Of a stretch of DNA of 64,000 nt, positions 19,301-63,905 are shown piece by piece. Both the position numbers and the translations under genes were made by a program. The notes beneath the pieces were generated by a model. The model made no database searches and was not told where the DNA came from. It saw nothing but the letters and a program-made list of their open reading frames with translations. Origin of the DNA: an uncultured Acidobacteriota bacterium (GTDB lineage Bacteria; Acidobacteriota; Thermoanaerobaculia; Multivoradales; UBA5704). The stretch lies in NCBI GenBank assembly GCA_963756455.1, contig CAVWNC010000004.1:824074-888073 (forward strand), written 5' to 3'. Each line of letters begins with the position of its first letter. The stretch's first letter is position 1.

Positions 19301-19699
19301 ATGCTGTTTGTAGAGACCGCCGCGCATACGGGCGCCGTCCAGATTCCCTCGGAATTTTTCACTCTCCAGAGCATGCTGACCTTGACCGGCGCCTCCGGCG
19401 CCACGTTTGTCGTCTGTAACGGTCTCCAACGGGCTTTCGACTTCAATCCTCGTTGGCTCGCTCTCCTGGTCGCTCAGATCGTGGTCATCGTGGGCACCCA
19501 CCTGAGCCACACCGGAGGCGTGGGCCTCGGTGACTACTTCGTCGCGGTTCTCAATGGATTCTTGGTCTATGCCACCGCAGCCGGGACCACCCACATCCTC
19601 GGCGGTCCTTCCGAGGCTCCTGCGGTGGCCCGCGGGGCGCGAGAGGTGAGCCCGCCCTCTTTTGGGAGCCGCCGGCGCTTCCTCTCTCCGTGGTTTTAG
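19301..19699 (+). CDS. Small multi-pass membrane protein (132 aa)
   Basis: GGGAGG RBS; EFFTLQSMLTLTGASGATFVV, NPRWLALLVAQ, VAVLNGFLVYATAAG; overlaps the next gene. Confidence 0.75.
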   Translation: MLFVETAAHTGAVQIPSEFFTLQSMLTLTGASGATFVVCNGLQRAFDFNPRWLALLVAQIVVIVGTHLSHTGGVGLGDYFVAVLNGFLVYATAAGTTHILGGPSEAPAVARGAREVSPPSFGSRRRFLSPWF

Positions 19700-38679: not shown

Positions 38680-38802
38680 TCAGAGCGGAAATGGGGAAAG
38701 CACAACCCGAAAGCCTAAGTAGTCGCTCCGGACGAACGGGTTACGCCAGTCTCGGAAGGCGCAGCGACCTTTCCTCCTGTTGTAATAGAACGCCCCGCCG
38801 CG
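38680..38802 (-). repeat. DGR-type variable region VR-b
   Basis: 123 nt; RGGAFYYNRRKGRCAFRDWRNPFVRSDYLGFRVVLSPFPL. Confidence 0.75.
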
Positions 38803-41724: not shown

Positions 41725-41847
41725 TCAGAGCGGGAACGGGGAAAGCACAACCCGAAATCCTACGGAGACGAGCCGGCCGTCCGGGAAGTGCCAGTTGCGG
41801 GCGGCGCAGCGGACGTACCTCGAGGTGAAGTCGAACGCCCCGCCGCG
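41725..41847 (-). repeat. DGR-type variable region VR-c
   Basis: 123 nt; RGGAFDFTSRYVRCAARNWHFPDGRLVSVGFRVVLSPFPL. Confidence 0.8.
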
Positions 41848-46978: not shown

Positions 46979-49900
46979 ATGGGCGCTAAGAACATGGATG
47001 CTTTCGCGCTACGAGACAGCGTCGTCGACGAGTACAAAAGCTTCGCGACATCCTTCACGACCATCTTCGCCCAGGACATCCGCCAGCAGGTCGACGCTAT
47101 CTATGCAGAGGGCCGATTCTGGCCCGAGCCGCTCCTCCAGATCAATCCGAGCTATCGCCGCTCGAAGACCGTCGGCGAGCTCGTCGCGTCCGGAATGCTC
47201 CAGCCCGGGTGTGCCGAGATCTTCCAGGACTCGGGCGAACCGCTACGGCTCTACAAGCATCAGGAGCAGTCGATCGCGCTCGCGTCCCAGGACGAGAGCT
47301 TCGTCGTCACCACGGGCACCGGGTCTGGCAAGTCGCTCTGCTTCTTCATTCCGATCGTCAATTCCGTGCTGGCCGAGAAAGCGGTCGGCGGCGAGAAACG
47401 GACCCGCGCGATCATCGTTTATCCGATGAACGCGCTCGCCAACAGCCAGCTCGAGGAGCTCGATAAGTTCCTCTCCAACGTGAGCGGTCCGAGGCCGATC
47501 ACCGTGGCACGATACACCGGCCAGGAGAATAGCGATCAGAGGCACCAGATCGCCGAGGATCCTCCTGACATCTTGTTGACCAACTTCATGATGCTCGAGC
47601 TGTTGATGACCCGGCAGGACGAGATCGACCGCCGGGTGATCGGCAACTGCGCGGGCCTGCGCTTCCTTGTTCTCGACGAGCTCCACACCTATCGCGGACG
47701 CCAGGGAGCGGATGTCGCTCTCCTGGTGCGCCGCGTTCGCGAGCGGCTCTCCCCCGAGCGGCTGCAGTGCATCGGCACCTCGGCGACGATGGCGAGCGAA
47801 GGATCCCAGGTCGACAAGAACCACCTGGTCGCGGAAGTCGCCTCGCGGCTCTTCGCGGCGCCGATCCCGGATAGCAACGTCGTCGTCGAGACCCTGGAGC
47901 GCGTCACCAATCCGGATATTTCTGAGCCGTGGGTGCTCGCAGCTCTCGGCCCGGCGATCGATGCGGGCATTCCGCCCCATATCTCCGACTCCGGGCTGCG
48001 GACGCACCCGCTCGCCATCTGGATCGAGACCCGGCTGGGCATCGAATGGTCCGACCTCGACCAGCGTTGGGGGCGAGCCCGCCCGCGAACGGTCACGGAG
48101 GCGGTAGCCGTGCTCGCCGCGGACGCAAGACGAGCTCCCGACGCCTGCCAGGTTGCTCTGCGCGAGCTATTGCTCTTGTCGAGCATCCCCGAGACCGAAC
48201 GCACCGGCGACCCGAACGCTAACTCCCATAGTTTTTTCGCTTTCAAGCTTCACCAGTTCATCTCGGGTGCAGGTCATGCCTTCGCGACCCTCGAACCGCC
48301 CGGTAGCCGGATCGTCACGGTCGAGGGACAGCAGTTCCTTCCTGGTGCGCCAGAAAAGCGCCTCTATGCTGTCCACTTTTGCCGCGAATGCGGGCACGAG
48401 TACCATCCTGTCCGGCTGGTCAACGAAGCGGGCGAGCGGATTTTTCTCCCCCGCAACATCGACGACGCTCCCCCCAAACCGCCCGACAGCGACGATGCGG
48501 CAGAGCTCACGGGCGAGGAGGACCCCGACCGCGAGGAATTCGGCTTCCTCACCCTCCATGCGACCGACCCCGGATTCGATTTCGCGGGCCGGGAAGAGCA
48601 ATATCCCGAAACCTGGCTTGAGATCGGTCCGAAGGGCATCCAGCGTCTCCTGCGCAACTATCGCGCGGCCCGCCCCCATCCGTTTCTGGTAGCCCCCACA
48701 GGGAAGGTCGGATCGGGTATCCAAGCCTGGTTCTTGCCGGGGAGATTCCGGCTGTGCCTGCGCTGCCGCGAGACGCAGTCGACCTCGGCGAAGGACCGGA
48801 CGCGCCTCGCTTCGCTCTCGGCCGAAGGCCGCAGCTCGGCGACCACGGTGCTCGTCACCAGCGCCTTGCGCTGGATGCACGGCCTCGACTCTGGTCTGGA
48901 GGGTTTCACTCGCAAGCTCCTCGGGTTTACCGACAACCGGCAGGACGCGGCGCTCCAGGCGGGGCACTTCAACGACTTCCTCTTCGTCAGCCTCATCCGC
49001 GCCGGGTTCCTGGGCGCGCTCGAGACGGCTGGCCCTGCGGGCCTGCGGAGCGATCAGCTCGGCCTGGCGCAGCAGAGGGCCCTCGGCTTCGATCGCCCGG
49101 ATCCCGAGTTGCGCGCGGAGTGGCTGCTCGAGCCCGCGCTCAAAGGCTTTGCGGTCCAGGACGCCGAGGCGACGCTGCGGCAGGTTCTCGCCTACCGCGT
49201 CTGGTTCGATCAGCGCCGCGGCTGGCGTTACACCAACCCGAACCTCGAGCAACTCCGTCTGGTGCAGGTCCGCTATCTCGGCCTCGAGGAGCTCGCTTCG
49301 GACGAAACGGCGTTCGCCGACGCTCCCGCCGTGCTGCGCCAGGCCTCGCCGCAGGTCCGCGCCGACGTGTATCGCGAGCTTCTCGACCACCTGCGCAAGT
49401 GGATGGCAGTACGGAGCCAAGTTCTCGAGCCGACCTCGATCGAACAGATGCTGCAGCGCTCTTACAGCCGCTTGCGGGTGCCCTGGGGCTTCGGTTCCGA
49501 CGAGAAACCGCGGCGGGCCGGCTGGCTGATGATCGCATCTCCACCCCGCAAAGATGTGAAGCTGCGGGATCAGGATCTGATCGTGCGGGGCGGCTCGCGC
49601 AGCGCCCTCGGCAAGGCGCTTCGCTCGTCGGATCTCTGGGGTGGAAATGCGATCCGCTCCTTGAAACCGAAGGAACTGGACGCTCTCGTGGCATCGTTGC
49701 TCTCGGCAGCCTCGATGCACGGTCTCGTTTCGGAAGAGGTGACGCCGTTCGGCAGCCATACCGGCTGGCGCTTGAACGACGGTTGCGTAGAGTTCCACCT
49801 GGGAGAAGCCTCACGAGACGCTGCACTCGACCGCGAGAACGCCTTCTTCTGTGATCTCTACGGTAATCTCGCCCAGCTGCTTCGCGAGGTCGGGCATCCG

Positions 49901-52339
49901 CTCTTCGGCTTCGAGGCCCGCCCGCACACGGCTCAAGTCGATAGCGAGAAGAGGGCTGTGCGCGAGAAACGCTTTCGCTATGGCAATAAAGAGCGCGACG
50001 AGCTCACGGCCGATGAGAAACACCTGCGCGAGATCGACGAGACGAGTCGCTTCCTCCCCGTCCTCTTCTGCTCGCCGACGATGGAGCTCGGCGTCGACAT
50101 CTCGGCCTTGAACGCCGTCTACCTGCGAAACGTCCCACCGACGCCGGCCAACTACGCGCAGCGCAGCGGTCGCGCTGGCCGGAGCGGCCAGGCCGCTCTC
50201 GTCGTCACGTACGCCGCGGCGCAGAGCCCGCATGACCAGTATTTCTTTCGTGATCCCAGGGCCATGGTCCATGGCGAGGTTCGCCCGCCGCTCCTCGATC
50301 TCGCCAATCGCGATCTCGTCAACAGTCACCTCCAGGCGGTCTGGCTCGCCTGCACCGAAACGCTGCTGAGCCCATCGATCGCCGATCTTCTGGAGCTTTT
50401 GGACGCGAAACGCCCGCTCAAGGAGGAGTTGAAGCAGCCCATGGCCGAGCCCGGTGTCGCGGCACGGGCAATCGAGCGGATGGGGCGAGTGCTCGACCTC
50501 CTGGCCGACGACCTCACCCCCGCGCACGCCCCCTGGTATATCGGGGGACGCGACGCGTATGCCGCCGCCGTCGCTCAGGAGGCGCTCGCCCGCTTCGATG
50601 CCGCTTTCAAACGCTGGCGTGATCTTTTTACCGCTGCCGAGCAGCAACGCGATGCCGCTCGCCGCATCATGGACAACTACGCCGCGCCACAGGAGGAGAA
50701 GCGAGCTGCCAAGAGCCGGCACACACAGTCGATCGACCAGCTGGACCTGCTCCAGAAAGGCACCAGCACCCAGTCGAGCGACTTCTATACCTACCGCTAC
50801 CTCGCGACCGAGGGGTTCCTGCCCGGCTACAACTTCCCGCGGCTGCCGCTCATGGCCTACGTGCCGGCGACGAGCGACAACCATGGCAAGCAGACGTATT
50901 TGCAGCGGCCCCGCTTCCTGGCCCTCTCCGAGTTTGGGCCGCGCAGTCTGGTCTACCACGAGGGCCGCGCCTACCGCGTTGTGCGCGCGCTCCTCGCCCT
51001 AGGCCCACAGGACGCCGCCACCGCCGAGGTCCGCCTGCCGACGCAGTCCGTGCGGATCTGCCGCGCCTGCGGCGCCGGCCACTTCGACGACCAGGCCTCG
51101 CTCTGTCGCGGTTGCGGCGTCTCGCTCGGCAATGCCGAGATCGTCAACGATATCTTCCGGATCGAAAACGTGGCGACGCATCCGGCCGAGCGCATCACCG
51201 CCAACGACGAGGAGCGCCAGCGCCAGGGATTTGAGTTGCAGACAACCTTCGAGTGGGCGATGCGCGACCAGCTGCCCGACGTACGGAACGACAACGCTAG
51301 CGACGGCGCAGGCGTTGTCGTCCGTCTCTCCTACGGTCCTGGAGCGACGATCACGCGCCTCAACAAGGGACTTCGCCGCCGCGCTGACCGTACCAAATTC
51401 GGGTTCAGCATCGATCCCGTCTCCGGCTGGTGGGCCAAGAATGAGGACGAAGACGACGAGCCCTCCGACCCAACCGTGTCAGCTCGGCAGAGGATCGTGC
51501 CCTCGGTGCGCGATCACAAGAACGCTCTCCTTCTCCAGCCCGCTGACCCGCAGCTCTCGTCGCTCACTCTGACCACGATCCAGCACTCCTTGCTCCGCGG
51601 CATCGAGGCGGTCTTCCAGCTCGAGCAGGGCGAGATCCTCGCCGAGCCCATGCCCAGTCGTGAGGCTCGTAACGGATTCCTCCTCTATGAGGCGGCGGAG
51701 GGCGGCGCCGGTGTCCTCACCCGTCTCGTCGGCGAGCCGACGCGGCTCGCCGAGGTGGCGAGGAAGGCCCTGGCGATTCTGCACTTCGACATCGAGGGTC
51801 AAAGCGGCCTTCCCGCCGAGGCCGAGGCGCTCGTCGATCTGCCGGATACGGCTTGTGTCGCGGCCTGCTATCGCTGCGTGATGTCGTACTACAACCAGCC
51901 GGATCACGAGCTCCTCGACCGCCGTGACCCGCAGGCCCGGAGCGTCCTGCTGCGGCTCGCCCGCAGCAGCACCTCCGGCCTCGATGCCATACCGGGGAGC
52001 CGCTCGACGCTGGACGCCGAAGTCGGCTCCCCTGCCACGCTCGACCCAGCGCTCGCCCACTGGCTCGCTCTCGCCCGAGCCCGCGACTTGCCACCTCCCG
52101 ACCCCAAGCCGCTCTCCCTGATTCCCGCTGCCGAGGGCGGCGAGGCTCGCCTGCCGCTCGTCTGGCGCACTCACTACGTCGCGGTGCTCCTTGATGATGC
52201 CATGCCCCAACACCTCGACCGGCTCGCGGACCGCGGCTTTGAGGTCATCACCTTTCCCGCGGCCCCTTCCGCCGATCCTCTCGTAGCATGGGATGAGCCC
52301 TTCCGTCGTCTTGCGACCGCCCTCGGACGGAGCGCATGA
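46979..52339 (+). CDS. Large YprA-like DEAD/DEAH helicase with DUF1998 (DrmA/B- and DruE-related)
   Basis: TTGTGSGKS, YPMNALANSQ, LDELH, TSAT, FTDNRQDA, SPTMELGVDI, QRSGRAGR, CVAACYRC..YYNQ. Confidence 0.88.
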   Translation: MGAKNMDAFALRDSVVDEYKSFATSFTTIFAQDIRQQVDAIYAEGRFWPEPLLQINPSYRRSKTVGELVASGMLQPGCAEIFQDSGEPLRLYKHQEQSIALASQDESFVVTTGTGSGKSLCFFIPIVNSVLAEKAVGGEKRTRAIIVYPMNALANSQLEELDKFLSNVSGPRPITVARYTGQENSDQRHQIAEDPPDILLTNFMMLELLMTRQDEIDRRVIGNCAGLRFLVLDELHTYRGRQGADVALLVRRVRERLSPERLQCIGTSATMASEGSQVDKNHLVAEVASRLFAAPIPDSNVVVETLERVTNPDISEPWVLAALGPAIDAGIPPHISDSGLRTHPLAIWIETRLGIEWSDLDQRWGRARPRTVTEAVAVLAADARRAPDACQVALRELLLLSSIPETERTGDPNANSHSFFAFKLHQFISGAGHAFATLEPPGSRIVTVEGQQFLPGAPEKRLYAVHFCRECGHEYHPVRLVNEAGERIFLPRNIDDAPPKPPDSDDAAELTGEEDPDREEFGFLTLHATDPGFDFAGREEQYPETWLEIGPKGIQRLLRNYRAARPHPFLVAPTGKVGSGIQAWFLPGRFRLCLRCRETQSTSAKDRTRLASLSAEGRSSATTVLVTSALRWMHGLDSGLEGFTRKLLGFTDNRQDAALQAGHFNDFLFVSLIRAGFLGALETAGPAGLRSDQLGLAQQRALGFDRPDPELRAEWLLEPALKGFAVQDAEATLRQVLAYRVWFDQRRGWRYTNPNLEQLRLVQVRYLGLEELASDETAFADAPAVLRQASPQVRADVYRELLDHLRKWMAVRSQVLEPTSIEQMLQRSYSRLRVPWGFGSDEKPRRAGWLMIASPPRKDVKLRDQDLIVRGGSRSALGKALRSSDLWGGNAIRSLKPKELDALVASLLSAASMHGLVSEEVTPFGSHTGWRLNDGCVEFHLGEASRDAALDRENAFFCDLYGNLAQLLREVGHPLFGFEARPHTAQVDSEKRAVREKRFRYGNKERDELTADEKHLREIDETSRFLPVLFCSPTMELGVDISALNAVYLRNVPPTPANYAQRSGRAGRSGQAALVVTYAAAQSPHDQYFFRDPRAMVHGEVRPPLLDLANRDLVNSHLQAVWLACTETLLSPSIADLLELLDAKRPLKEELKQPMAEPGVAARAIERMGRVLDLLADDLTPAHAPWYIGGRDAYAAAVAQEALARFDAAFKRWRDLFTAAEQQRDAARRIMDNYAAPQEEKRAAKSRHTQSIDQLDLLQKGTSTQSSDFYTYRYLATEGFLPGYNFPRLPLMAYVPATSDNHGKQTYLQRPRFLALSEFGPRSLVYHEGRAYRVVRALLALGPQDAATAEVRLPTQSVRICRACGAGHFDDQASLCRGCGVSLGNAEIVNDIFRIENVATHPAERITANDEERQRQGFELQTTFEWAMRDQLPDVRNDNASDGAGVVVRLSYGPGATITRLNKGLRRRADRTKFGFSIDPVSGWWAKNEDEDDEPSDPTVSARQRIVPSVRDHKNALLLQPADPQLSSLTLTTIQHSLLRGIEAVFQLEQGEILAEPMPSREARNGFLLYEAAEGGAGVLTRLVGEPTRLAEVARKALAILHFDIEGQSGLPAEAEALVDLPDTACVAACYRCVMSYYNQPDHELLDRRDPQARSVLLRLARSSTSGLDAIPGSRSTLDAEVGSPATLDPALAHWLALARARDLPPPDPKPLSLIPAAEGGEARLPLVWRTHYVAVLLDDAMPQHLDRLADRGFEVITFPAAPSADPLVAWDEPFRRLATALGRSA

Positions 52340-55189
52340 CGATCCCCGCCGCCACGTCGCAGCCCACCGTCCCGGCCAGTCAGGAGCTCTACAGCCCGGG
52401 TAGCCTAGTCAGCGCCCGCGGTCGGGAGTGGATCGTGCTCACGGGCAGCGACGCCGAGACGCTCCGCGTGCGACCCGTTTCCGGCTCGGAGGAAGACGGA
52501 ACATTCATCCACCTCGCGCTGGAGCCCGAGCCGGTGCGAGCGGCGCGCTTTCCGCGGCCTGGTGTGACCCAGCGCGCCAGCCACGACGCGGCACTCCTCC
52601 TGCGCGACGCCCTGCTCCTCTCTCTCCGCCGCGGCGCGGGCCCGTTCCGAGGTGCCGGTCAGATCGCCGTCGAGCCGCGCGCCTACCAGCTCGTGCCGCT
52701 CCTGATGGCGCTCAAGCTCGATCCGGTGCGCCTGTTGATCGCCGACGACGTCGGCGTCGGCAAGACCATCGAGGCGGCGCTCATCGCGCGCGAGCTCCTC
52801 GACCGTGGCGATATCGAGCGCACTGCCGTTCTCTGTCCGCCTCACCTCGTTGATCAATGGCTCGGCGAGTTGGAGACGCACTTCCACATCCGCGCGGTCG
52901 GCGTCACCGCGACGAGCGCCGGCCGGCTCGAACGCAATCTGCCGCCCTCCGAAAGTGTCTTCTCGGCGCACCCGCATACCGTGGTCAGCCTCGACTACAT
53001 CAAGAGCGACCGCCGCCGCGCCGACTTCTTGCGCACCTGCCCCGAGTTCGTGATCGTCGACGAGGCGCACACCTGTGCCGCGACGGGCGCGGGTCGCCAC
53101 CAGCGCTACGAGTTGCTCCGCGGCCTTACCGAATCGCCGACCCGCCATCTGGTGCTCCTCACCGCCACCCCTCATAGCGGTGACGAAGCCGCCTTCTTCC
53201 GGTTGCTCGGTCTCCTCGACCGCGACTTTGGCCGGCTCGCCGAGGCGACCGGCGAGGAGAGACTCCAACTCCGCGAGCGTCTCTCGCGTCACTTCGTGCA
53301 ACGCCGCCGACCCGACATCGCCGAGTGGAAGGAGGGCAACCTCTTTCCCCGCCGGGAGACGAAGGAGCTGACCTACGAGCTCACCGGCGGTTGGCAGAAG
53401 CTGTTTGACGGGGTTCTCGACTACTGCGCCGCCGTTGTCGACTCGGCAGCCGGAGACGAGCACCGCGCGCGGCTCAGCTTCTGGGGAACGTTGGCCCTCA
53501 TGCGCTGCGTAGCCTCGAGCCCGGCTGCGGCGGCGCAGGCCCTCCGCACCCGTGCCGGGCTGGAAGAGTCCGAGGATGCGGAGGCCCTCCTGGACCAGGT
53601 CTTCGACGGTGGTGCGGATTCGCTCTCGGAGGATGACGTCGAGCCCCTCGCCGGCAACGACGAGCCGGCTCTCGTGGGTCTTATTGCCCAGGCCGAAAAG
53701 CTTGCCGGCCAGACCGGTGACCCCAAGTTGAAGTTGCTCACCGCTCACCTGGGTGAGCTTGTGGCGGATGGTTTCAATCCGGTCGTCTTCTGCCGCTACA
53801 TCGCGACCGCCCACTACCTCGCGCGCCACCTAGAAGGCCAGTTCGCCGACGTGACGGTAGCGGTCGTGACGGGCGAGCTCACTGCGGAGGAGCGCCGGGA
53901 GAAGGTCGACGCCTTGGGGGACGCCGACCGCCGTTTGCTGGTCGCCACCGACTGTTTATCCGAGGGCGTCAACCTCCAGGATTTCTTCGACGCGGTCGTT
54001 CATTACGACCTCTCCTGGAATCCCACCCGCCACGAGCAACGCGAGGGGCGGGTCGACCGTTTCGGCCAGCCCTCTCGGGTCGTGCGTACGACTCTCCTCT
54101 ATGGCGCCAACAACCCCGTCGACGGTGCCGTGCTTGACGTCATCCTGCGCAAGGGTGCCCGCATTCGGGAGGAGCTCGGCGTGCCGGTTCCCCTTCCCGA
54201 CGATGGGCACACTCTGAGTCGCGCCCTGATGCAGGCGGTTCTCCTCCGCACCCGGGCGAAGGATGGACAGCGGCAGCTCACCCTCGACTTCCTGGAGCTC
54301 CCCGAAGCGAAGGCGATCGACTCCCGATGGCAGGACGCGGCCGAGAAGGCGAAGCAGAATCGCACGGTCTTCGCCCAACGCCGCCTCAAGCCCGAGGAGG
54401 CTCCTCCCGGAGTGGGAGAAGACTCTCGCCGCGGTCGGCGGCCGGGACGAGGTGCGCCGCTTCACCGATCGCTCGCTCGCCCGACTCGGCTCCGGGCTGG
54501 AGACTCTGCGGCGCGGCTTCAAGGTGCCGCTCGCCCCGCTTCCCGAGGAAGTGCGCGAGCGCCTCGAAGCCGAGGGGCTCACCGGCACTCTGCGCATCGA
54601 CTTTGCCTATCCGCCTGCGTCGGGTTGCCGGCCGGTGCAGCGCAGCCATCCACTGGTCTCCGTGCTCGCCGAGACTCTGCTCGAACGCACCCTCGCTTCT
54701 CCAGCGGATTCCACCGGTTCCGCGACTCCCACCGACCCGGGCGTGCTCGGCCGGGTCGGTTGCTGGGTGTCGGCCACCGTCGCGGAGCGCACGACGGTAG
54801 CGCTCCTGCGCCTTCGCCACCAGCTCGGCACCCAGCGGCCCGGCCGCGGCGCAACTACGCTTCTCGTCGAAGAGGCGACGGCTCTCGCCTGGATCGGCGC
54901 CGACGGCGCTTCGCTCGTCGAAGGCGCCGACGCATTCGCGCTCCTCGTCGCCTCACCGGTCGGCGACCCACCGCCGCACGTGCGCGACCGCATGGCGACA
55001 CAGGCGCTAGAGCTCGTGGCTCTCCGCAACGCGGACCTCGACGCCTTCGCCGAGCGCCGCGCCGAGGTGCTCCTTGCCGATCACCGCCGCATCCGAGAGG
55101 CCGCCGCCGCACGCGGCAGCTACAGCGTCAAGGCGCTTCTGCCGCCGGATGTCGTCGCTGTTTACGTTCTGCTCCCGCCGGTGAGCTGA
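52336..55189 (+). CDS. SNF2-family helicase, DrmD-like (frameshift near 54400)
   Basis: PGSLVSARGREW, LIADDVGVGKTIEA, VDEAH, LTATPHSG, SEGVNLQ, QREGRVDRFG; C-terminus continues in ORF 54263-55189. Confidence 0.88.
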
Positions 55190-55193
55190 CGCG

Positions 55194-58100
55194 ATGGCCG
55201 CTCGACGCACGACAAGTAAGGAATCGAAGCCGCGGTCCTCGGTGCGACCGCGCCCGCCGCGGAAGCCCCGACGCCGTGAGGTGAAGCTCGCCTTCGAGGC
55301 TCTGACGATCGAGGGCGGCCTCCTCTCTCCCGACTGGCTCGCCCGCGTCGCCGCCCTCGAGGCGGGCGGCCAGGGAGAGGCCGACTACCGCATCCCCAAG
55401 GGCTTGCAGTTGCGGGATGAAATCGGCCGCTACTGGCGCATCGCGCAGGCATACTGGAGTGACTTCACGACCGGCCTTGCGAGCGCCACCAAGCCTGAAG
55501 CCGCGCAGGCGCTTTCCGAACGCTTCGTGCTTTCCCTGCTCCGCGAAGGCTTCGGCTTTGGCTCGCTCACCGCGACCGAGCCGCGGGTGCTCGCCGAGCG
55601 CAGCTATCCGATCGGATTTACTGCGCTGGGGGAACGGGTTCCCGTCGTGATAGCTCCGGCCGGGAGAGGGCTCGACACCCTGGCGCCCACCTTTGGCGAG
55701 GGCGGCCGGCGGCGCAGTCCCTTCGGCTTGGTGCAAGAGTACCTGAATGCTGCCGAAGGCGCGACCTGGGGGCTCGCATCGGATGGGCTCGCTTTGCGAA
55801 TCGTTCGCGATAACGCGAGCCTTACGCGGCCGGCGTGGATCGAGGCCGATCTCTCTCGGATCTTCACCGAGGAGCGCTATTCCGACTTTACGGCGCTCTG
55901 GCTCCTGGCCCATGAGACGCGCTTTGGACGCGCCGACCAAGCTCCAACGGAGTGCGCTCTGGAAGCCTGGCGCGACGCTGGCCGCGAGGAAGGGACTCGC
56001 GCCCGCGAGCACCTGCGGCGTGGCGTCGAGGAGGCCCTTCTCGCCTTCGGGCAGGGCTTTCTCGCCCAGCCTGAGAATACGGCCCTGCGCGCAGCGCTCC
56101 AGAACGGCTCGCTTTCGACGATCGCCTACTTCCAGGAGCTACTGCGCCTCGTCTACCGCCTCATCTTCCTGCTCACGGTCGAGGAGCGTGGTCTGATTCA
56201 CCCTGAGGGCTCGGCAGAGGGAGCGCGCCGGCTCTACGCCGATGGCTATAGCCTACGGCGCCTCCGTGAGCGGTCGATCCGACGAAGCGCCCACGACCGA
56301 TTCTCGGACCTCTGGGAGGCAACGAAGATCGTTTTCCGGGGCCTTGCGGTGGGGGAATCGCGGATCGCACTACCGGCGCTCGCCGGCATCTTCGCCTCGA
56401 CCCAATGTCCGAGACTCGATGTAGCAAAGCTTGAGAACCGGGCGCTGCTCCTCGCCGTCTTCCGCCTCTCGTGGCTGCGCGAGGCATCGGGCCTCGCGCG
56501 CGTCAACTGGCGAGACATGGGGCCCGAGGAGCTTGGGAGCGTCTACGAAAGCCTTCTCGAGCTGGTTCCCCAGGTAACGCTGGGAGGCCGCCTCTTCGCC
56601 TTCGCGACCGGCGGGGAGACGAAGGGGAACGCGCGTAAGACGAGCGGCAGCTACTACACACCCGACAGCCTGGTGCAGGTTCTCCTCGACAGCGCGCTCG
56701 AGCCGGTCGTGGCCAGCACCCTCGCCGCGAGCCCCGAGCGGCCGGTCGAGGCCCTGCTCGAGCTCTCCGTCGTCGACCCCGCCTGCGGCTCCGGCCATTT
56801 CCTTCTTGCCGCCGCTCGTCGGCTCGCTGGCCACGTCGCGCGTTTCCAGGTGAACGGTACGCCGACGGCTGCCGAGTACCGCCACGCCCTCCGCCAGGTG
56901 GTTGGGCGTTGCCTTTACGGCGTCGACCTGAATCTGATGGCGGTCGAGTTGTGCAAGGTTAGCCTCTGGATGGAAGCCGTCGAGCCCGGCCTGCCGCTAA
57001 CCTTTCTTGATGCCCACATCCGCCACGGCAATGCCCTTCTAGGCACGACGCCCAAGCTGATGGAGGCGGGCATCCCGGACGCGGCTTGGAACACGATCGA
57101 GGGCGATGACCGCGAGGTCGCGAGCGGGTTGAAGAGACGGAACAAACGATCTGAAGGGGGTCAGCGAGCGCTCGACACTCTGTGGACCAAGCCAGTCGAG
57201 AGCGAGACGGCAGAGGTAGAGCATGCCGTTGCGGCTATCGAGGCGGCGCCGGATACAGACGTCGAGGCGCTGACGCGCAAAGAAGCGCGATGGGAAGGCC
57301 TACTCGACTCTGAGGCCTACCGCCACCAGAAGCTCGTCGCTGACACATGGTGCGCCGCGTTCGTCTGGCCGAAACAGCCGGGGCCACTCCAAGACGCGGC
57401 GCCGACCAACGACGTGTGGATCCAGATCCACGACCGAAGGGGGCTACCGAACCCGCTCACGGTGAGCACAACCGAGGGCCTTGCTGATCAGTACCGTTTC
57501 TTCCACTGGCATTTAGCATTCCCACAGGTCTTCGCGAGGGGGGGGTTCCATATTGTGCTAGGAAACCCGCCGTGGGACCAGCTCCAGTTTCGGGAACAAG
57601 AATTCTTCTCCTCTCGGAATCCAAGTATCGCTGAGGCCTCGACCGAAGCGGCGAGAAAGCGAATGATCGGCTGCCTCTCCGTGAGCGACCCGCGCCTACT
57701 GGCCGAATACCAGTATGGTCTTCGTGCGAATTCCGGTGAACGCTTCTTTGCACTCACAAGTGGCAGGTATCCCTTGGGGGCACGCGGAAGAGTGAATACC
57801 TACTTACTCTTTGCGGAAGTGGCCAGCGAGATAGGCAGCAACGTCGGGCTGATCCTGCCCACCGGAGTGGCTACAGACGAGAGCGGCCGCCTTCTGTTCA
57901 GCCACTTATTCTCGGGCGGTCGACTTCGCATGCTGTGGGACTTTGAGAATCGGCTACGGTTGTTTGCGGACGTAGATGGAAGGGCGCGGTTCGCACTTTT
58001 CTCCCTTTCCAGGCAATCGTCTGTACCCGCCGATCTCTGCTTTGGTCTTCACTCTGTTGCGGATGGCAACGATGAGAAGCGGCACTTCACACTAAGCGCC

Positions 58101-59741
58101 TATGAGCTTAGTTTGCTCAATCCAAACACCCATACTTGCCCATCCTTCCTCCGCCGCTCTGATGCAGAACTCGTGAAGCAGATACACGAACGCATTCCCG
58201 TGCTGCTGAAGGAAAACGATGTATCTAGCAAGCATGACTCCTGGGATGTTGTCACCAAGCCAGGCCTTTTCAATATGGCGACGGACTCTGGTCTTTTCGT
58301 CGAACCTGAGGAGGGTCAGAATCTTCTCCCCGTTTATGAGGGAAAGATGTTCGGGATCTACGACCATAGAGCGGCCGATGTCATCCTGAGCGAGACTGCG
58401 ACTATTCGTCAAGGACAGAGCGACTTGATCGGCGATGAGGAGCATAGAAATCCTGAACGTTACGCTCGACCACGTTACTGGGTCTCTCAAACCGAGATCA
58501 AGAGACGAGTTCTGGGTCAATGGGATCGCGGCTGGATTACAGGTTGGAAAGAAATTACAAGTCCTACAAACTCGCGAACGCTGATACCTGCGTTGCTACC
58601 ACTCTCCGGGATCGGCCATAAGATTCCAGTCTTCCTTCCTTCCGTAAATGTTCGCGGCCTAAGCCATGCCCTTGTCGCCAACATGGCATCGTTTGTGTGC
58701 GACTATGTCTGTAGAAACAAGCTAAACGGGACGAGCCTCACACCTTTTACCCTGAAGCAACTCCCCGTCTTGCCGCCAGGCACATACGCCAAGAATGCTA
58801 TTTGGGATCCAGGCACGACACTTGGTGCCTGGGTCCTACTCCGTGTTCTCGAACTAACGTATACCGCCTGGGATCTCCAGCCCTTTGCCCTCGATGTTGG
58901 CTATGACGGCCCGCCCTTCTGCTGGAACCCGGAACGCCGGTTCCTGCTGCGGGCCGAGCTCGACGCAGCTTTCTTCCATCTCTACAGCCTCTCGCGCGAC
59001 GAGACTGCTTACATCCTCGATACCTTCCCGATTATCCGCAAGAACGACGAGAAAGCGCACGGCGAGTTCCGCACCAAACGCCTGATCCTCGAAATCTATG
59101 ACGCCATGGACGAGGCCACCCGCACCGGCCAGATCTATGCCACGCGTCTCGGCCCAAGACCTGCCGATCCACGTGTTGCCCATCCCCCGCGCATCGGCAG
59201 CGTTATCCGGTTTCCTTCTTCCATGCTTGTGCCGCCGCTCCCGGCATGGGGCCAAGAACTCTTTGCCGAGGTCGCAGCGCGCACGCAAGTCAGTCTCACA
59301 GCTGGAACGTGGGGAACGAGCCTATCAGGCGAGAACCTCGGCATGGTCGCGTTGGCCGCTGTGTTGCGCAACCTGCCAGGGCCGCGCGCTCGTGAGGAGG
59401 TCGAGCGCGCCGTGGTTCTCGCGCTGGTTCCGCGACTAATGCAGCCGAACTTCGACAACATGTCTGCGAAGACATGGGGTAGCTTAATTGGTCGTGAGAA
59501 CCTCAAGATCACCTCAGTCAGTGCCCTTGGAATTCCGTGGAACGCTGTGATCCGTAGAGCGATCCACCAGAATGTCCTCGCGGTGGAGGTGAATGGCCGT
59601 TGGGGCCCGGGGACGGAGGTCGCCGACGCCCCATCTCCCGCATTTGAAGCACGCACGCTCGTTGTCCTCGCATGGTTGGCCATGGTGCCCGCGGAGGATG
59701 ATGAGGTGAGCAAGCAGATGGAGGATCTCCATGCCGCGTAA
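55194..59741 (+). CDS. Large N6-adenine DNA methyltransferase (Eco57I/DrmMI-like) with C-terminal extension
   Basis: ELGSVYESLLEL, SGSYYTP, DPACGSGHFL, FHWHLAFP, GNPPW, LRAELDAAFFHLY. Confidence 0.9.
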   Translation: MAARRTTSKESKPRSSVRPRPPRKPRRREVKLAFEALTIEGGLLSPDWLARVAALEAGGQGEADYRIPKGLQLRDEIGRYWRIAQAYWSDFTTGLASATKPEAAQALSERFVLSLLREGFGFGSLTATEPRVLAERSYPIGFTALGERVPVVIAPAGRGLDTLAPTFGEGGRRRSPFGLVQEYLNAAEGATWGLASDGLALRIVRDNASLTRPAWIEADLSRIFTEERYSDFTALWLLAHETRFGRADQAPTECALEAWRDAGREEGTRAREHLRRGVEEALLAFGQGFLAQPENTALRAALQNGSLSTIAYFQELLRLVYRLIFLLTVEERGLIHPEGSAEGARRLYADGYSLRRLRERSIRRSAHDRFSDLWEATKIVFRGLAVGESRIALPALAGIFASTQCPRLDVAKLENRALLLAVFRLSWLREASGLARVNWRDMGPEELGSVYESLLELVPQVTLGGRLFAFATGGETKGNARKTSGSYYTPDSLVQVLLDSALEPVVASTLAASPERPVEALLELSVVDPACGSGHFLLAAARRLAGHVARFQVNGTPTAAEYRHALRQVVGRCLYGVDLNLMAVELCKVSLWMEAVEPGLPLTFLDAHIRHGNALLGTTPKLMEAGIPDAAWNTIEGDDREVASGLKRRNKRSEGGQRALDTLWTKPVESETAEVEHAVAAIEAAPDTDVEALTRKEARWEGLLDSEAYRHQKLVADTWCAAFVWPKQPGPLQDAAPTNDVWIQIHDRRGLPNPLTVSTTEGLADQYRFFHWHLAFPQVFARGGFHIVLGNPPWDQLQFREQEFFSSRNPSIAEASTEAARKRMIGCLSVSDPRLLAEYQYGLRANSGERFFALTSGRYPLGARGRVNTYLLFAEVASEIGSNVGLILPTGVATDESGRLLFSHLFSGGRLRMLWDFENRLRLFADVDGRARFALFSLSRQSSVPADLCFGLHSVADGNDEKRHFTLSAYELSLLNPNTHTCPSFLRRSDAELVKQIHERIPVLLKENDVSSKHDSWDVVTKPGLFNMATDSGLFVEPEEGQNLLPVYEGKMFGIYDHRAADVILSETATIRQGQSDLIGDEEHRNPERYARPRYWVSQTEIKRRVLGQWDRGWITGWKEITSPTNSRTLIPALLPLSGIGHKIPVFLPSVNVRGLSHALVANMASFVCDYVCRNKLNGTSLTPFTLKQLPVLPPGTYAKNAIWDPGTTLGAWVLLRVLELTYTAWDLQPFALDVGYDGPPFCWNPERRFLLRAELDAAFFHLYSLSRDETAYILDTFPIIRKNDEKAHGEFRTKRLILEIYDAMDEATRTGQIYATRLGPRPADPRVAHPPRIGSVIRFPSSMLVPPLPAWGQELFAEVAARTQVSLTAGTWGTSLSGENLGMVALAAVLRNLPGPRAREEVERAVVLALVPRLMQPNFDNMSAKTWGSLIGRENLKITSVSALGIPWNAVIRRAIHQNVLAVEVNGRWGPGTEVADAPSPAFEARTLVVLAWLAMVPAEDDEVSKQMEDLHAA

Positions 59742-61720
59742 GCCGGTTCAACAGAGACTACCTTTCCCTGCTCCTCCTAGGCTCGAGTGCGCTACCGGCC
59801 GGGCTGAGCCAACCCTCTGGGTCCGCCGCCTCCTCCTGTGGCACGACGTGTCCAAGGAGCCCATCCGTGACGTCGCTCTGTATCGCGGTCTGAATATCGT
59901 CTGGTCCCCGACCGGAAGCGACTCCGAAGCTCTCGCCACCGGCCACGCGGCAGGGAAAACCTTGTTCTGCCGCCTGCTTCGATACTCCCTGGGCGAGGAC
60001 TCGTTCGCGGACCCCGAGGACTCCGATGCGATCCGCACGCGATTTCCTGAAGGAGGAGTGGGGGCGGAAATCAGACTTCGAGGAGAGACCTGGGTGATTC
60101 GGAGGCGGTTCGGAACTCCGCGGGACGATCGCGCGGTGAAAGCGGAGAGCGTCGAGCGACTCTCAGATGAGAGCCTTCGCGGTTCCTTCGGAGCCTTCCG
60201 CAACGAAATCGAAAGCACCGTCTTCGACGATAACCAGCGACGCCTTCTTGGCGAGATGGCAGATGTTCAGAGCGCGTGGCAGTACGTCCTAGCATGGCTG
60301 ACCAGAGACCAGGAATGCCGAATCGACGGATTGACTCATTGGCGGCATCCGGAGTCCAGTTCCCAGTCTCCTGTTCGTAGTGCGGGGCCTGAGACCCGGC
60401 TGAACGTACTCCGTATCGCGATCGGACTGTATTCGGAAGCATCGCGCGTGGCCAGAAGGGCAGTCGCGGATGCAGCCAGCCGAACGAAAACGACGAGCGC
60501 CGTGGCTCGTCAAGCGGAGGTGCGTTTCGACTCGCTACGAGACGAGCTGGCAGCTGCTCTCGGCGTTGAGGCCGACCTCATCTGGCCTCCGCCGGTCGAG
60601 CTTCTTCAGGACGAGCAGACTGCACGAGAGGAACATCTTCAATCATTGACGGCACTTGCCGATCATAAGATTCGCGGCACGACTGCCGTGTCTATGGACC
60701 CGACGCACGCGCGTGACGAAGAGCAACTGGAACAGGCCGCTGGCGACTTCGCCCGAGTGACACAACGAATCGCGAATCTCGCAAGTGAAGTCGAACGCAA
60801 GCGTGAACGCGCGAAGCTGCTGGAACCAGAGAGTGCCGAGCGCTGGAAGGAGGTGCGAGAAGCAAAGCATCCTGTCTGTCCGTATGACGGTACGCCACTG
60901 GATGTCGACGAGGCGAGATTCGTGTGCCCGCTCCCGCGCCTTCCCGATCCCGCCGCTGCCGAAGGGATCGCCGCGGAAACCGAGGCGACTCGGAAGGAAG
61001 TGTTGAAGTGACCTTGAAAAGGACGAGAGAGATCTGACCGCGCTCAACGGTGACAGAGCGTCGCTCGAGGCGAAGGTAGGAGCACTTCGGCGAAGCATCG
61101 AGGCTCACCGCCTCGCCGTTGCCGCAGCGACCAGCGCCAGTCAGGCAGCATGGGCAACGAAAGGGATGGTGCGCCGACTGTTCGAGTTGCGGGCACAGTG
61201 CGACAATGCGCTTCGCGCCGAAGCGGAAGCCAAGGAAGCACTCCGAGGGCGTCAGGACGGTCAGGTTGAAGGATTGTCCGCGTTCTCGACAGGCAAGCTC
61301 GAACGATGGTTCGATTTCCTGGTTCAACGCGTAGTCGCGCCCGAGGCAACAGGGGCGATTGTGCTGGATGGCAACGGCCTGCACCCAAGGATCCAATGGC
61401 GCGGGACACGGCGTTCTGTCGCGCTCAACTCGCTCCAGATCGTGCTCTTTGATCTCGCTGCGATGTTGTGCGCAGTGGAGGGTGACTCGCGAGCCCCAGC
61501 CTTTCTAGTGCATGACAGTCCTCGCGAAGGAGATCTCGATCCGTGGACCTACGCACGCCTCTTTGAAGCGCTCTTCGAGCTTGGGCCGAACGAGAGTACT
61601 GCACCATTCCAATACGTCGTGACGACAACGACCGATCCGCCTGAGGAAGTGCGATCAAGAGTTCGGCTGCGGATCAGCGCCGGCGAGGAACAGCAGCGGC
61701 TGTTTCGGGTCGATCTGTGA
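59731..61720 (+). CDS. SMC-like coiled-coil ABC ATPase (ABC-3C/DUF2326-like; frameshift near 61008)
   Basis: GLNIVWS..GHAAGKTLFCRLLRY, coiled coil with CPYDG..CP, Walker B FLVHDSPREGDLD, FQYVVTTTT. Confidence 0.8.
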
Positions 61721-61821
61721 TGTCCGGCGCCATTCTCTGAAATCTTGGTGCTGCATCGTCATTACCAGCCTGAAGCACAAGCGCTGAGGAAGCCTCCCCG
61801 CACCGACCGAGCGAGGTACTG

Positions 61822-62607
61822 ATGCCCCTTGGCCCGTCCGCCGCCACTCTCACCCTGCTCGAAAAGCTGGCGGTCGACAACGGCTTCGATCGAGAGCTGC
61901 CTCGCGAGGGCGAATGGCTCGCTTTCGCGAGCACACAGAGCCCCTTGCGAATCTGGCTGTCGTCACCTGGAGAGGCGCTGTTCCTTGCCGCGCTCTCCCA
62001 AAGCAATGTCGCAGCCGCGCTCGAGATTGGCACAGCGACCAAGCCCCTCCTTCCCTCGATCGCGGTCGCCGCCCGAACCGTCACCAACCTCCCGGCGCTG
62101 CACCATCTCGTCCGCCGCGCTTTCCAGCTCTCGAAGACTCTTCCACACGAACTGCTTCACACCTTCGAGAAGGAGACCGCCAGCCTTCCTCGCTCGACCG
62201 AGGCTGAGCGCCTCGTGGTCCAGCGCGTCGGCCAGGATATCTTTCGTACCGGCCTCCTCGAATACTGGGAGGGCCGCTGCGCTATTACCGGTCTCGATGT
62301 GCCCGAGCTCCTGCGCGCGAGTCACATCAAGCCATGGGCCTCCTGCACCAGCGACACCGAGCGGCTAGACGTGTTCAATGGCTTCTTGCTGGCCCCGCAC
62401 CTGGACGCGGCCTTCGACGGTGGCTTCATCACCGTAGCCGATGATGGAGCTGTGGCGCCGTGGGAAGGGCTTGGCGCGGACGCTCGACAGCTGCTGGGTC
62501 TCGCCACCCCATTGAGGGTCACAGCGCTCGCCCCCGGCCATCGCGCTTACCTACCTTGGCACCGGGAGCATATTTTCCGCGGGAGCGCCTACGCTGAGGA
62601 CTGGTAG
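61822..62607 (+). CDS. HNH endonuclease
   Basis: QRVGQDIFR, CAITG, LRASHIKPW, NGFLLAPHLDAAFDGGFIT, YLPWHR. Confidence 0.9.
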   Translation: MPLGPSAATLTLLEKLAVDNGFDRELPREGEWLAFASTQSPLRIWLSSPGEALFLAALSQSNVAAALEIGTATKPLLPSIAVAARTVTNLPALHHLVRRAFQLSKTLPHELLHTFEKETASLPRSTEAERLVVQRVGQDIFRTGLLEYWEGRCAITGLDVPELLRASHIKPWASCTSDTERLDVFNGFLLAPHLDAAFDGGFITVADDGAVAPWEGLGADARQLLGLATPLRVTALAPGHRAYLPWHREHIFRGSAYAEDW

Positions 62608-62665
62608 ACTTCTGGCCTCTTCGGCCCCAGCGCAGCGGTGATCGCGCGGGTCATGATCGGTCCTT

Positions 62666-62872
62666 CTACTCATCGCTATCGACCTTATCTGTCTCTCTTG
62701 ATTCTTCTGACATCTCAGGGCTAGCAATGGTTCCGATATCCTTCCGAGGCAGCCTTACAGGCGGCATCGGAATATCATTGACCTCGAAGGCCGAAATGGC
62801 GAAACCAGACTTCGGGCCTGGACCAGTGTTTTCCATGAAATCATCGTCTGTGGGTTCATCAGGGCGTCTCAT
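62666..62872 (-). CDS. Small acidic hypothetical protein
   Basis: ATGA overlap with the upstream gene; GGAGAAG RBS. Confidence 0.45.
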   Translation of the reverse strand: MRRPDEPTDDDFMENTGPGPKSGFAISAFEVNDIPMPPVRLPRKDIGTIASPEMSEESRETDKVDSDE

Positions 62873-63441
62873 AGATCTTCTCCACTTTCTCCATAGAACG
62901 TTGAAAAATAAATCCTTGCCTCTTTCTTGGCCCTGGATGAGTAGCCTTTCCTCTGAGGCAACGGATCGCCGTGCAAATTCTTTATAAATGCCTTTTGAAA
63001 GCGACGCCTGACATCCATAGAAAGACGATTGATTTGAGCATCCGTAAACTCACCTTCGGCGACAGAGTACCAATTGCTCTCGGCAAGATTAAAGAGATCC
63101 GCTAGCTCTGAACCTAGGGATGCGATCTTCTCAGCCCTACGCTGGTAAGGCAACAATTCCTTTACTGCGGAAAGAAGCTGTGACCCCGCAATAATCGCAG
63201 CCCACAAAAACTGAAGATGCTGCCACACAACCCAGGCCGCTATGCTGCTACTGGAAGCCAGAGCTAGGACAATCTTAATACCAGTATCAATCCGCTTAGA
63301 CTCGAGTTCATAAGAGGACAGATACATGGCATAGATTTTTAGCTGCACTAGTTCGTTCCAGTAGCGCCATTGCTGATAGTGTGGGCTCTGTCTTCTTCTT
63401 GCTCTATTCCTAGACTTACCCATCTCAACTTCGGTAGCCAT
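62869..63441 (-). CDS. SLATT-like two-TM protein
   Basis: YWNELVQLK, TM pair IVLALASSSSIAAWVVW / LWAAIIAGSQLLSAV, LPY; AT-rich relative to the window. Confidence 0.6.
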   Translation of the reverse strand: MATEVEMGKSRNRARRRQSPHYQQWRYWNELVQLKIYAMYLSSYELESKRIDTGIKIVLALASSSSIAAWVVWQHLQFLWAAIIAGSQLLSAVKELLPYQRRAEKIASLGSELADLFNLAESNWYSVAEGEFTDAQINRLSMDVRRRFQKAFIKNLHGDPLPQRKGYSSRAKKEARIYFSTFYGESGEDL

Positions 63442-63905
63442 CGCCTCCTCCGCCTGGAATGCGCGTTCTGAGCTTAATTTCAGTAGTGACAGCAGAAGGA
63501 AATATTAGTAGGCCAGGGAGACGCTGTCAATGACATCTAAATCTTTGCGGCCACTTCGTTCGCCTGCTGACGTGGCGAGATCCGCACTGGAATCAAGAAC
63601 CTCCGGCGACAGGACGCGCCTCCGCGCTGCCCTTGATTCCTGGATCCATGGGCTCGGGTCCAGCATACTGACCCGTATCCTGGAGAGCGATCAGGGCATC
63701 GCCGAGCAAAGGAGCCGCTTCAACTGCCAAACCTCCTGCCGGTGATCGACTGCCTCCTCACCGAGACCGCGCAGATCCACAGTCTGCCCCCTCGTGGCCT
63801 TTCCCTTCCCGTGGGACGTCAGACAGTCTCCGCCCGCTGCCTGCGAATCCGGCCCATGCACCCAGTCTTCCCGGTCTCCCACCGGGATCTTCCGCTCGGA
63901 ACCCT

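Follow-up and report, generated by a model that had tools for sequence, protein, structure and literature searches.

What kind of antiviral system is encoded by an operon that joins two helicases and a DNA methyltransferase to an SMC-family ATPase and an HNH nuclease? Five co-directional plus-strand genes of this description lie within positions 46979 to 62607 of a 64,000-nucleotide stretch of DNA (the window; positions 824,074 to 888,073 of contig CAVWNC010000004.1, assembly GCA_963756455.1) from an uncultured Acidobacteriota bacterium of the lineage UBA5704. On the basis of domain and profile hidden Markov model calls, gene order, and identity to the helicase regions of two loci (L009 and L025), genes 1 to 3 are an ARMADA Type I trio; what goes beyond the description of that type is confined to genes 4 and 5 and to the lost nuclease motif of the helicase. 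For the locus as a whole, the explanation that we prefer, at about an even chance of being correct, is that it represents a distinct ARMADA Type I sub-lineage, in which an HNH nuclease replaces the lost helicase nuclease and an LmuB-like ATPase stands behind the methylase.

Composition of the operon and comparison with known systems

The five genes (Table 1) are closely packed. An ATGA overlap (positions 52336-52339) joins genes 1 and 2, 4 nt separate the end of the SNF2 frame (55189) from the start of the methylase (55194), and the methylase stop codon (59739-59741) and the ATG of the ATPase gene (59731) bound an 11-nt overlap. No open reading frame (ORF) separates the methylase and ATPase genes, the ATPase and HNH genes lie just 101 nt apart, and there is no LmuC or middle-component gene. 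The initial annotation had placed five genes here and had described these three junctions; the genes are real and the junctions exact, but it missed a one-base frame break in each of the SNF2 and ATPase genes. The catalytic motifs are intact in all five proteins.

Table 1. Features of the operon and of its surrounding composition, in window coordinates.
Feature	Coordinates	Strand	Size or basis
Gene 1, YprA/DruE-like DExH helicase, ArmC equivalent	46979..52339	+	1786 aa
Gene 2, BrxHII/DrmD-like SNF2 helicase, ArmA equivalent	52336..55189	+	~951 aa if read through; frame-broken
Gene 3, PglX/DrmMI-like N6-adenine DNA methyltransferase, ArmB equivalent	55194..59741	+	1515 aa
Gene 4, LmuB-like (Lamassu / ABC-3C) SMC-family ATPase, DUF2326 C-terminus	59731..61720	+	~663 aa if read through; frame-broken
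Gene 5, HNH_2 nuclease	61822..62607	+	261 aa
Lower-G+C patch	56500..63900	.	composition profile

The product of gene 1 matches the Pfam families DEAD (2.7e-28), Helicase_C, and MZB/DUF1998 (4e-08; the Zn-binding domain of MrfA), and carries the motifs GSGKS115, DELH233, and SAT268. Its best PADLOC models are those of DruE (DruE1, 3e-85), with DrmA at just 1e-15. Gene 2 matches SNF2-rel_dom and Helicase_C, with the motifs GVGKT140 and DEAH242; among PADLOC models, it is matched by DpdE (PDLC02853, 1e-168), DrmD (5e-76), and BrxHI/II (6e-62), and its score against the NCBIfam DrmD model (289 bits) is under the cutoff of 610. Gene 3 matches Eco57I (6e-15) and N6_Mtase in Pfam, DrmMI in PADLOC (4e-59), and, weakly, PglX of BREX, and it retains motif I (VDPACGSG527) and motif IV (NPPW791).

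As described by Bell et al. (2025, bioRxiv, PMC12458937), ARMADA Type I consists of a YprA-like helicase, a BrxHII-like helicase, and a PglX-like methylase, in this order, and the helicase has a predicted active C-terminal Vsr-type nuclease. The trio of the window has the same content and order, with a helicase closest to DruE, but differs from this description in that the helicase is devoid of the C-terminal Vsr-type motif and in that genes for an LmuB-like ATPase and an HNH nuclease are added. Table S1 of that paper lists an "ARMADA Type I helicase" on the contigs of two of our loci, i.e., L009 (Corallococcus terminator) and L025 (Aporhodopirellula aestuarii). Over residues 916-1783, gene 1 shares 68% identity with the L009 helicase region, and its identity to that of L025 is 42%; judging from the shared contig, the listed locus tag probably denotes the L009 helicase ORF. 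Given its order, its content, and its likeness to L009 and L025, the trio is not the possibly undescribed hybrid that the initial annotation had proposed. A term search of the main text and four supplements of PMC12458937 returned no mention of the ATPase and HNH genes.

ARMADA received its name as late as 2025, and the experiments given in PMC12458937 concern Type II alone, of which all four genes were needed for a non-abortive protection in Escherichia coli. Like the operon of the window, Type II combines the same three core proteins with an essential, type-specific extra protein (ArmD) encoded at the operon end. It differs in its reversed order, with the SNF2 and methylase genes first, and in the nature of ArmD, which is a RelE-GajB-like UvrD helicase.

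The earlier view of the trio as DISARM-related and free of a PLD gene was borne out; a Pfam scan found no PLD domain in any of the five genes. The window shares with DISARM class 1 a DrmD-like SNF2 protein, a DrmMI-like methylase, and a helicase with the DUF1998 module, and distant relatives of the ATPase stand between DrmMI and DrmA in two DISARM class 1 operons (L021 and L027). However, DISARM has separate DrmA and DrmB proteins and the PLD nuclease DrmC, whereas the window encodes one fused DruE-like protein. We rejected the label DISARM class 1 on three grounds: the single 1,786-aa protein, its far better match to DruE than to DrmA, and the PLD domain not being found. Druantia types I to III were rejected likewise, since only DruE-like matches were obtained and the neighboring genes encode an SNF2 protein and a methylase of the DISARM/BREX kind. 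As for Septu and Hma, no PtuA, PtuB, or HmaC model matched gene 4, gene 5, or their full-length relatives, and HmaA is just a secondary match of the SNF2 gene (4e-55).

The C-terminal piece of gene 4 matches Pfam DUF2326. Its full-length relatives are single proteins of 660-675 aa with a DUF2326 C terminus and up to 83% identity; the nearest of them is 83% identical before the frame break and 74% identical after it. The relatives have a conserved Walker A motif (GHAAGKT) and an invariant HDSPREGD. They match the PADLOC LmuB models over nearly their whole length (4e-25 to 1e-10) and PDC-M68B weakly, and the C-terminal piece from the window reaches 0.002 only against the LmuB model. An hhalign comparison between the ATPase and the canonical LmuB from L036 gave a probability of 16% (E, 0.0016), and searches of PDB sequences with the ATPase piece and the ATPase profile returned coiled-coil noise only and no match. 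The atlas neighbors of the ATPase are clusters labeled DUF2326, DUF3732, and "ABC-three component system protein." ABC-3C was reportedly defined by Krishnan et al. in 2020. Taken together, gene 4 appears to encode a remote relative of the Lamassu SMC-like ATPase LmuB. As in Lamassu, a nuclease gene comes after that of an SMC-family ATPase containing a coiled-coil insert; unlike in Lamassu, the ATPase of the window goes with a methylase gene, the HNH gene can be separated from the ATPase, and LmuC or a middle component is missing. These matches and atlas neighbors agree with the initial annotation, which had called the ATPase Lamassu- or ABC-3C-like without its small partner gene.

In the ATPase alignment, the residues C383...D386...C399-P400 are invariant inside KHPxCPYDxTPLDV...FVCPLP, in the middle of the coiled-coil region (positions 380-400 of P0002). 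This Cys pair may form a zinc-hook-like apex, as in Rad50.

When PADLOC was applied, as the initial annotation had advised, the parts were matched as DruE, DpdE/DrmD, DrmMI, and HNH, and the set of five genes was not recognized as a described system; models of this type would label the parts and not the set. A search of the ARMADA, DISARM, Lamassu, ABC-3C, and DUF2326 literature, with Krishnan et al. 2020 outside its reach, found no description of the five-gene form.

The helicase C terminus and the HNH gene

We compared the C-terminal domains of the helicases in an alignment of their last ~150 aa. Canonical relatives keep the Vsr-like nuclease motif PDFxY...[IV]DGPxHDxP...D...G[YW]xV[IV]RF; there are 15 such motif-intact sequences (L020, L025, L030-L036, and the lone helicases L037-L042). 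When their domains were combined into a profile, the best PDB matches included 3hrl (0.028), 3r3p (0.042), 1cw0 (0.56), and 1vsr (1.5), of which 3hrl is a DUF559-like "endonuclease-like protein" and 1cw0 and 1vsr are Vsr itself. These matches are weak singly but all of the Vsr fold, in apparent agreement with Bell et al. In the helicase of the window, the motif (PDFxY...DGPxHD) is gone. The same is true of 18 other loci (L006-L013, L015, L018, L019, L028, L048, L053-L055, L058, and L068), in which, as in the window, LPLVWR-HYVA is found instead and ~10 residues are deleted where DGPxHDxP is expected.

The loss of the motif goes together with the presence of an HNH gene. Such a gene was found in 17 of the 19 motif-lost loci, the exceptions being L007 and L011, whose contigs stop 1.5 and 0.7 kb past the ATPase, and in none of the six motif-intact trio loci with readable downstream DNA (L020, L025, and L033-L036). 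The motif-lost rows form one clade in a 34-row helicase tree, with a support of 100 in the Shimodaira-Hasegawa-like approximate likelihood ratio test (SH-aLRT) and a single change, and the clade persists when each row is cut before the C-terminal domain. It is a deep clade: its sub-branches are 36-45% identical in the helicase, and its members come from four phyla according to the record labels. Since motif loss and HNH presence fall on a single branch, and thus amount to one event, the correlated change is not statistically testable. A complex prediction with the C-terminal 407 aa of the helicase and the HNH protein scored 0.00, which gives no verdict and is evidence neither way.

The product of gene 5 matches HNH_2 in Pfam (3e-12) and the PADLOC HNH model PDLC04132 (3e-24). 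A profile of 20 relatives matched PDB entries 6yex/6ymg over residues 123-256 (3e-37); 6ymg is the EVE-HNH endonuclease VcaM4I according to Table S2 of Bell et al. (PMC12458937). The residues H168, N186, D195, and D199 are invariant. The likeness to VcaM4I-type EVE-HNH enzymes thus resides in the HNH_2 catalytic domain, but the N terminus of gene 5 is not recognizably EVE and the gene ends an ARMADA operon. The N-terminal domain (~120-125 aa) matched no Pfam family, EVE included, at E values up to 1.

Recurrence of the ATPase and HNH genes across loci

By means of an alignment of 36 ATPase relatives, we fetched 24 loci from species genomes and 34 from metagenomes, and duplicates were dropped (L057, identical to L011; L061, to L053; L065, to L064). 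The initial annotation had asked whether ATPase homologs recur behind this methylase family, and they do. Where the ATPase is 40% or more identical to that of the window and 700 nt or more of upstream sequence is available, the end of a window-type methylase coincides with the ATPase start (21 of 21 loci); where the ATPase is more distant (24-39% identity) and 5 kb or more lies upstream, the same methylase family precedes it in 10 of 14 loci. The remaining four comprise a type III Mod-Res pair directly followed by the ATPase relative (L064:2681-11992), a type I restriction-modification (R-M) operon likewise directly followed by it, with a specificity gene split by a transposase (L081:505-11896), an orphan among housekeeping genes (L026), and an undefined case (L077). 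In none of the ORF maps examined is the ATPase separated from the methylase by another gene. L021 and L027 hold the ATPase inside DISARM class 1 operons of the order DrmD, DrmMI, ATPase, lipase or Drt1a, DrmA, DrmB; a class-3 lipase follows the ATPase in L021, where DrmC stands at the end, and the reverse transcriptase Drt1a follows it in L027. Three Planctomycetota loci (L021, L022, and L027) share this placement of an ATPase relative between DrmMI and DrmA.

The full five-gene set occurs in 10 genome loci and 6 distinct metagenome loci, so that the expectation that HNH relatives co-occur with the trio and with ATPase relatives held in 16 loci. By record labels, these belong to at least four phyla (Acidobacteriota, Myxococcota, Verrucomicrobiota, and an alphaproteobacterium). 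Among loci in which the ATPase reaches 40% identity and the downstream sequence reaches 5 kb, 9 of 12 have an HNH gene downstream (it is absent in L020, L052, and L062), as do 3 of 13 loci with more distant ATPases and nine shorter loci. Several loci have other genes inserted between the ATPase and the HNH gene, i.e., DarT (L008 and L054), DUF4062 with Schlafen and GmrSD (L019), a YhcG-type nuclease (L058), and a reverse transcriptase (L069), and gaps of like size occur in L055 and L068. The HNH gene hence behaves as a terminal core gene, kept at the operon end behind inserted defense genes. The DarT insertions (L008:11994-12380 and L054:11997-12299) are short ORFs with the start of the domain of this single-stranded DNA ADP-ribosyltransferase and may be truncated toxin genes.

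A search of 351 genomes of the phylum with the HNH profile gave four full-length matches (G000, G110, G101, and G069), the first of which is the genome of the window itself. G110 (L028; G110:C1:571001-591000) has the trio, with a motif-lost helicase, and the HNH gene without the LmuB-like ATPase, in whose place there is a frame-broken ATPase of the AAA_21/AAA_15 type; an adjoining small HNH-like ORF was seen by eye only. In G101, an HNH gene with two in-frame stops directly follows an Eco57I/MmeI-type methylase at a contig end. The relative in G069 (42% identity, full-length) has no ARMADA gene within 18 kb; on another contig of that genome, an ARMADA helicase is cut short and followed by an insertion sequence (IS)-type integrase gene. 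The ATPase profile found G000 only. A helicase search of the same genomes gave L028 and four further trio loci (L033-L036), all motif-intact and without this ATPase and HNH gene. Downstream of the methylase, these have a Schlafen-type helicase (L033), Gabija-like genes (L034; an OLD-type ABC-TOPRIM ATPase and a UvrD-type helicase), a TIR protein (L035), and Lamassu-like genes with Cap4, MC4, and DUF3732 (L036).

Among 22 loci whose proteins are complete, the Spearman correlations of pairwise identities were 0.67 for ATPase and methylase, 0.66 for ATPase and SNF2, and 0.93 for methylase and SNF2; these values were reached in 0 of 2,000 permutations, and related loci inflate such figures. The ATPase tree has a tight clade of 12 ARMADA loci, all informative members of which have the HNH gene, and, outside it, long branches on which loci of ARMADA, DISARM class 1, type I R-M, and type III R-M are intermingled with the orphan. 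On the basis of the tight clade, the mixed long branches, and the identity correlations, we conclude from sequence comparison that the ATPase is a long-standing partner in this sub-lineage and belongs to a family that has moved between methylation-based systems.

Alternative explanations, state of this copy, and genomic setting

These observations can be assembled into a mechanism, which we infer by analogy with ARMADA II, BREX, DISARM, and Lamassu (10.1101/2025.03.14.643221). The motif of the fused Vsr-type domain has been lost from the helicase, and a free-standing HNH gene closes the operon. The methylase would mark host DNA, and the two helicases would engage unmarked incoming DNA. The HNH protein would supply in trans the cut that the helicase no longer makes. 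The ATPase, together with a methylase-containing complex, might sense or clamp DNA or might control access to the nuclease as a gatekeeper.

A wider and rather speculative proposal, which we think has a low probability, is that the DUF2326/LmuB-like ATPase is a dedicated, kleisin-less SMC-type sensor subunit that gates methylation-based restriction in ARMADA, DISARM class 1, and type I and III R-M systems, is translationally coupled to the last gene of the operon, and is here combined with an HNH nuclease that replaces Vsr. If true, this would define a third ARMADA type with a built-in Lamassu-derived sensor. In any event, the ATPase presents a case of a Lamassu-like sensor that has no kleisin-like partner and is attached to four kinds of R-M-type operons. 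In a deep sub-lineage spanning several phyla, the nuclease seems to have moved from a helicase-fused domain to a separate HNH protein, which offers a natural experiment on which part of ARMADA cuts, and testable cassettes are available in non-pathogenic soil bacteria.

The homology of the SNF2 gene runs in frame 1 from 52336 to ~54393 and then in frame 2 to the stop at 55189, and the mechanical ORF (52336-55284) runs on into an out-of-frame, arginine-rich end; near 54393, the window has one extra base relative to L006 and L007. The homology of the ATPase gene runs in frame 1 to 61005 and then in frame 2 (from ~61007) to 61720. The break is near 61006, the ORFs are 59731-61011 (426 aa) and, as listed for the second part, 61166-61720, and the window is again one base longer than its homologs. 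The ATPase frame is undivided in all 25 relatives checked. Outside the two break sites, both genes stay open, are 72-89% identical to their nearest relatives, and have intact motifs. Reads from one soil run contained 6% of the words and gave eight short contigs, four of them exact, none of which spans either break; these data inform neither on the breaks nor on the habitat. A crude genome-wide G+C-phase scan flagged 125 candidate break sites but missed both sites in the operon, and is an unvalidated, rough hint. Either assembly indel errors or recent decay would fit the two breaks.

Two side observations concern frame breaks elsewhere. A third apparent one-base break is found at ~40.7 kb in a STAND-FGE gene, where the G+C-phase scan flagged about 40700; on the minus strand, an nSTAND3 ORF (39941-41695) and an FGE-sulfatase ORF (38680-40959) overlap there in different frames and jointly mirror the adjoining single 1,026-aa STAND-FGE gene (41725-44805). 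The same operon is chopped into many frames in L005 (helicase, SNF2, and ATPase) and L028 (helicase and SNF2), and L013 is also among such genomes. Multi-frame operons in long-contig genomes are typical of indel-rich assemblies, which calls for caution in reading frame breaks.

Several points weigh against a distinct ARMADA Type I sub-lineage with these two additional components. This copy has frame breaks in its SNF2 and ATPase genes, and motif loss and HNH presence represent a single evolutionary event. Most loci were found via the ATPase, so its presence there is by construction, and the only helicase-based sample (the 351 genomes) yielded L028 without the ATPase and four trios with neither gene. 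Co-inheritance is looser for the ATPase than within the core (0.67 versus 0.93), the distant parts of the ATPase tree bring together ARMADA, DISARM class 1, type I and III R-M, and one orphan, and stand-alone systems (Gabija-like, Lamassu-like, TIR, and Schlafen-type) occupy the same downstream site of other ARMADA I loci. Additionally, the nearest match of the HNH domain is a modification-dependent restriction enzyme that acts alone, and in PMC12458937, ARMADA Type I itself is presented without an experimental test, Type II only having been assayed. Some of these points suit a different explanation, that the locus holds two adjacent systems, an ARMADA I trio and a separate ATPase-nuclease module of the Lamassu or Septu kind, co-transcribed or "embedded," whose ATPase would sense phage DNA or anti-restriction proteins and unleash the HNH nuclease, possibly killing the cell. 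LmuB models do match the full-length ATPase relatives, related ATPases follow type I R-M, type III R-M, and DISARM class 1 operons, another putative effector comes next in some loci (the class-3 lipase of L021 and Drt1a of L027), Gabija-like or Lamassu-like genes take the same place in other ARMADA I loci, and dyads of OLD-ABC and HNH genes are described beside BREX in PMC12839542. The pattern of "embedded or appended defense," as outlined by Payne et al., suits the stand-alone systems behind other ARMADA I trios. We nevertheless consider two systems unlikely here, since the ATPase and the HNH gene are found apart from each other (L028 has the HNH gene with an AAA_21-type ATPase, and L020 and L025 have the ATPase without an HNH gene), foreign genes are inserted between these two and never between methylase and ATPase, an LmuC or middle-component gene is lacking, and a free-standing ATPase-HNH pair occurs in none of the loci fetched. 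The HNH gene tracks the helicase clade that has no nuclease motif of its own. The wiring of methylation-based discrimination to a DNA sensor and an HNH effector, as proposed in the initial annotation, is uneven: the HNH gene follows the helicase clade and not the ATPase (L028 on the one side, L020 and L025 on the other).

Gene 5 might also be an independent type IV, modification-dependent enzyme that forms a second line against modified phage DNA, as BrxU does for BREX, with the ATPase belonging to the methylase. The match of its HNH domain to VcaM4I, the presence of a separate N-terminal domain where such enzymes carry a reader domain, and the G069 relative that has no ARMADA gene nearby are in line with this idea. 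Yet the N-terminal domain matches no Pfam reader family, three of the four full-length relatives in the 351 genomes have an ARMADA-type methylase next to them, in the fourth genome an ARMADA helicase truncated by an IS is encoded on another contig, and the coupling with the motif-lost helicase clade is strict, so that we regard an independent enzyme as improbable, and more so than two adjacent systems. A question of another kind is whether the system in this genome still works at all: should the SNF2 and ATPase genes truly be broken, the operon would be a decaying remnant, which we judge to be quite possible, at somewhat under an even chance. One extra base per gene relative to the homologs and the undivided ATPase frames of the relatives checked point that way, as does the report on ARMADA Type II in PMC12458937 that deleting any one of the system's four genes abolished protection. 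However, both genes are otherwise open with intact motifs, a third apparent break lies in an unrelated gene at ~40.7 kb, and the sites flagged genome-wide in the crude, unvalidated scan suit assembly indel errors equally well; the read contigs reach neither site and so do not decide the matter. The distinct ARMADA Type I sub-lineage, in which the HNH protein takes over from the helicase nuclease, thus remains the explanation that we prefer.

The composition of the window changes within the operon. The G+C content is 0.57-0.62 in the lower-G+C patch, compared with 0.66-0.71 on either side, and is back to ~0.70 just past the window end. The patch covers the 3' half of the methylase gene, the ATPase and HNH genes, and an unassigned 190-aa minus-strand ORF (62869-63441); in gene 3 itself, the G+C content drops from ~0.69 to 0.57 in the 3' half, which is also the most variable part of the methylase among relatives. 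This combination of variability and low G+C content suggests that the specificity region was exchanged together with the downstream genes, and the 3' half of the cassette may have come from a lower-G+C donor by recombination within the methylase gene. No tRNA genes were found in the window, and the ORFs scanned up to 18 kb downstream gave no integrase or transposase and no mobile-element borders.

Neighbors of the operon include STAND/NACHT NTPase genes with fused FGE-sulfatase domains, a gene for a caspase-domain protein, and one for a large WD40 protein. At least six FGE-sulfatase-domain genes, several of them fused to STAND/NACHT NTPases, lie at 16518-44805 and, just past the window, at L086:11324-16709. 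Beside this array are genes for a 908-aa caspase-domain protein (19690-22416), a 2,212-aa AAA protein (22751-29389), and a 1,387-aa WD40 protein (9280-13443). The FGE/STAND array looks like a conflict or signaling gene neighborhood.

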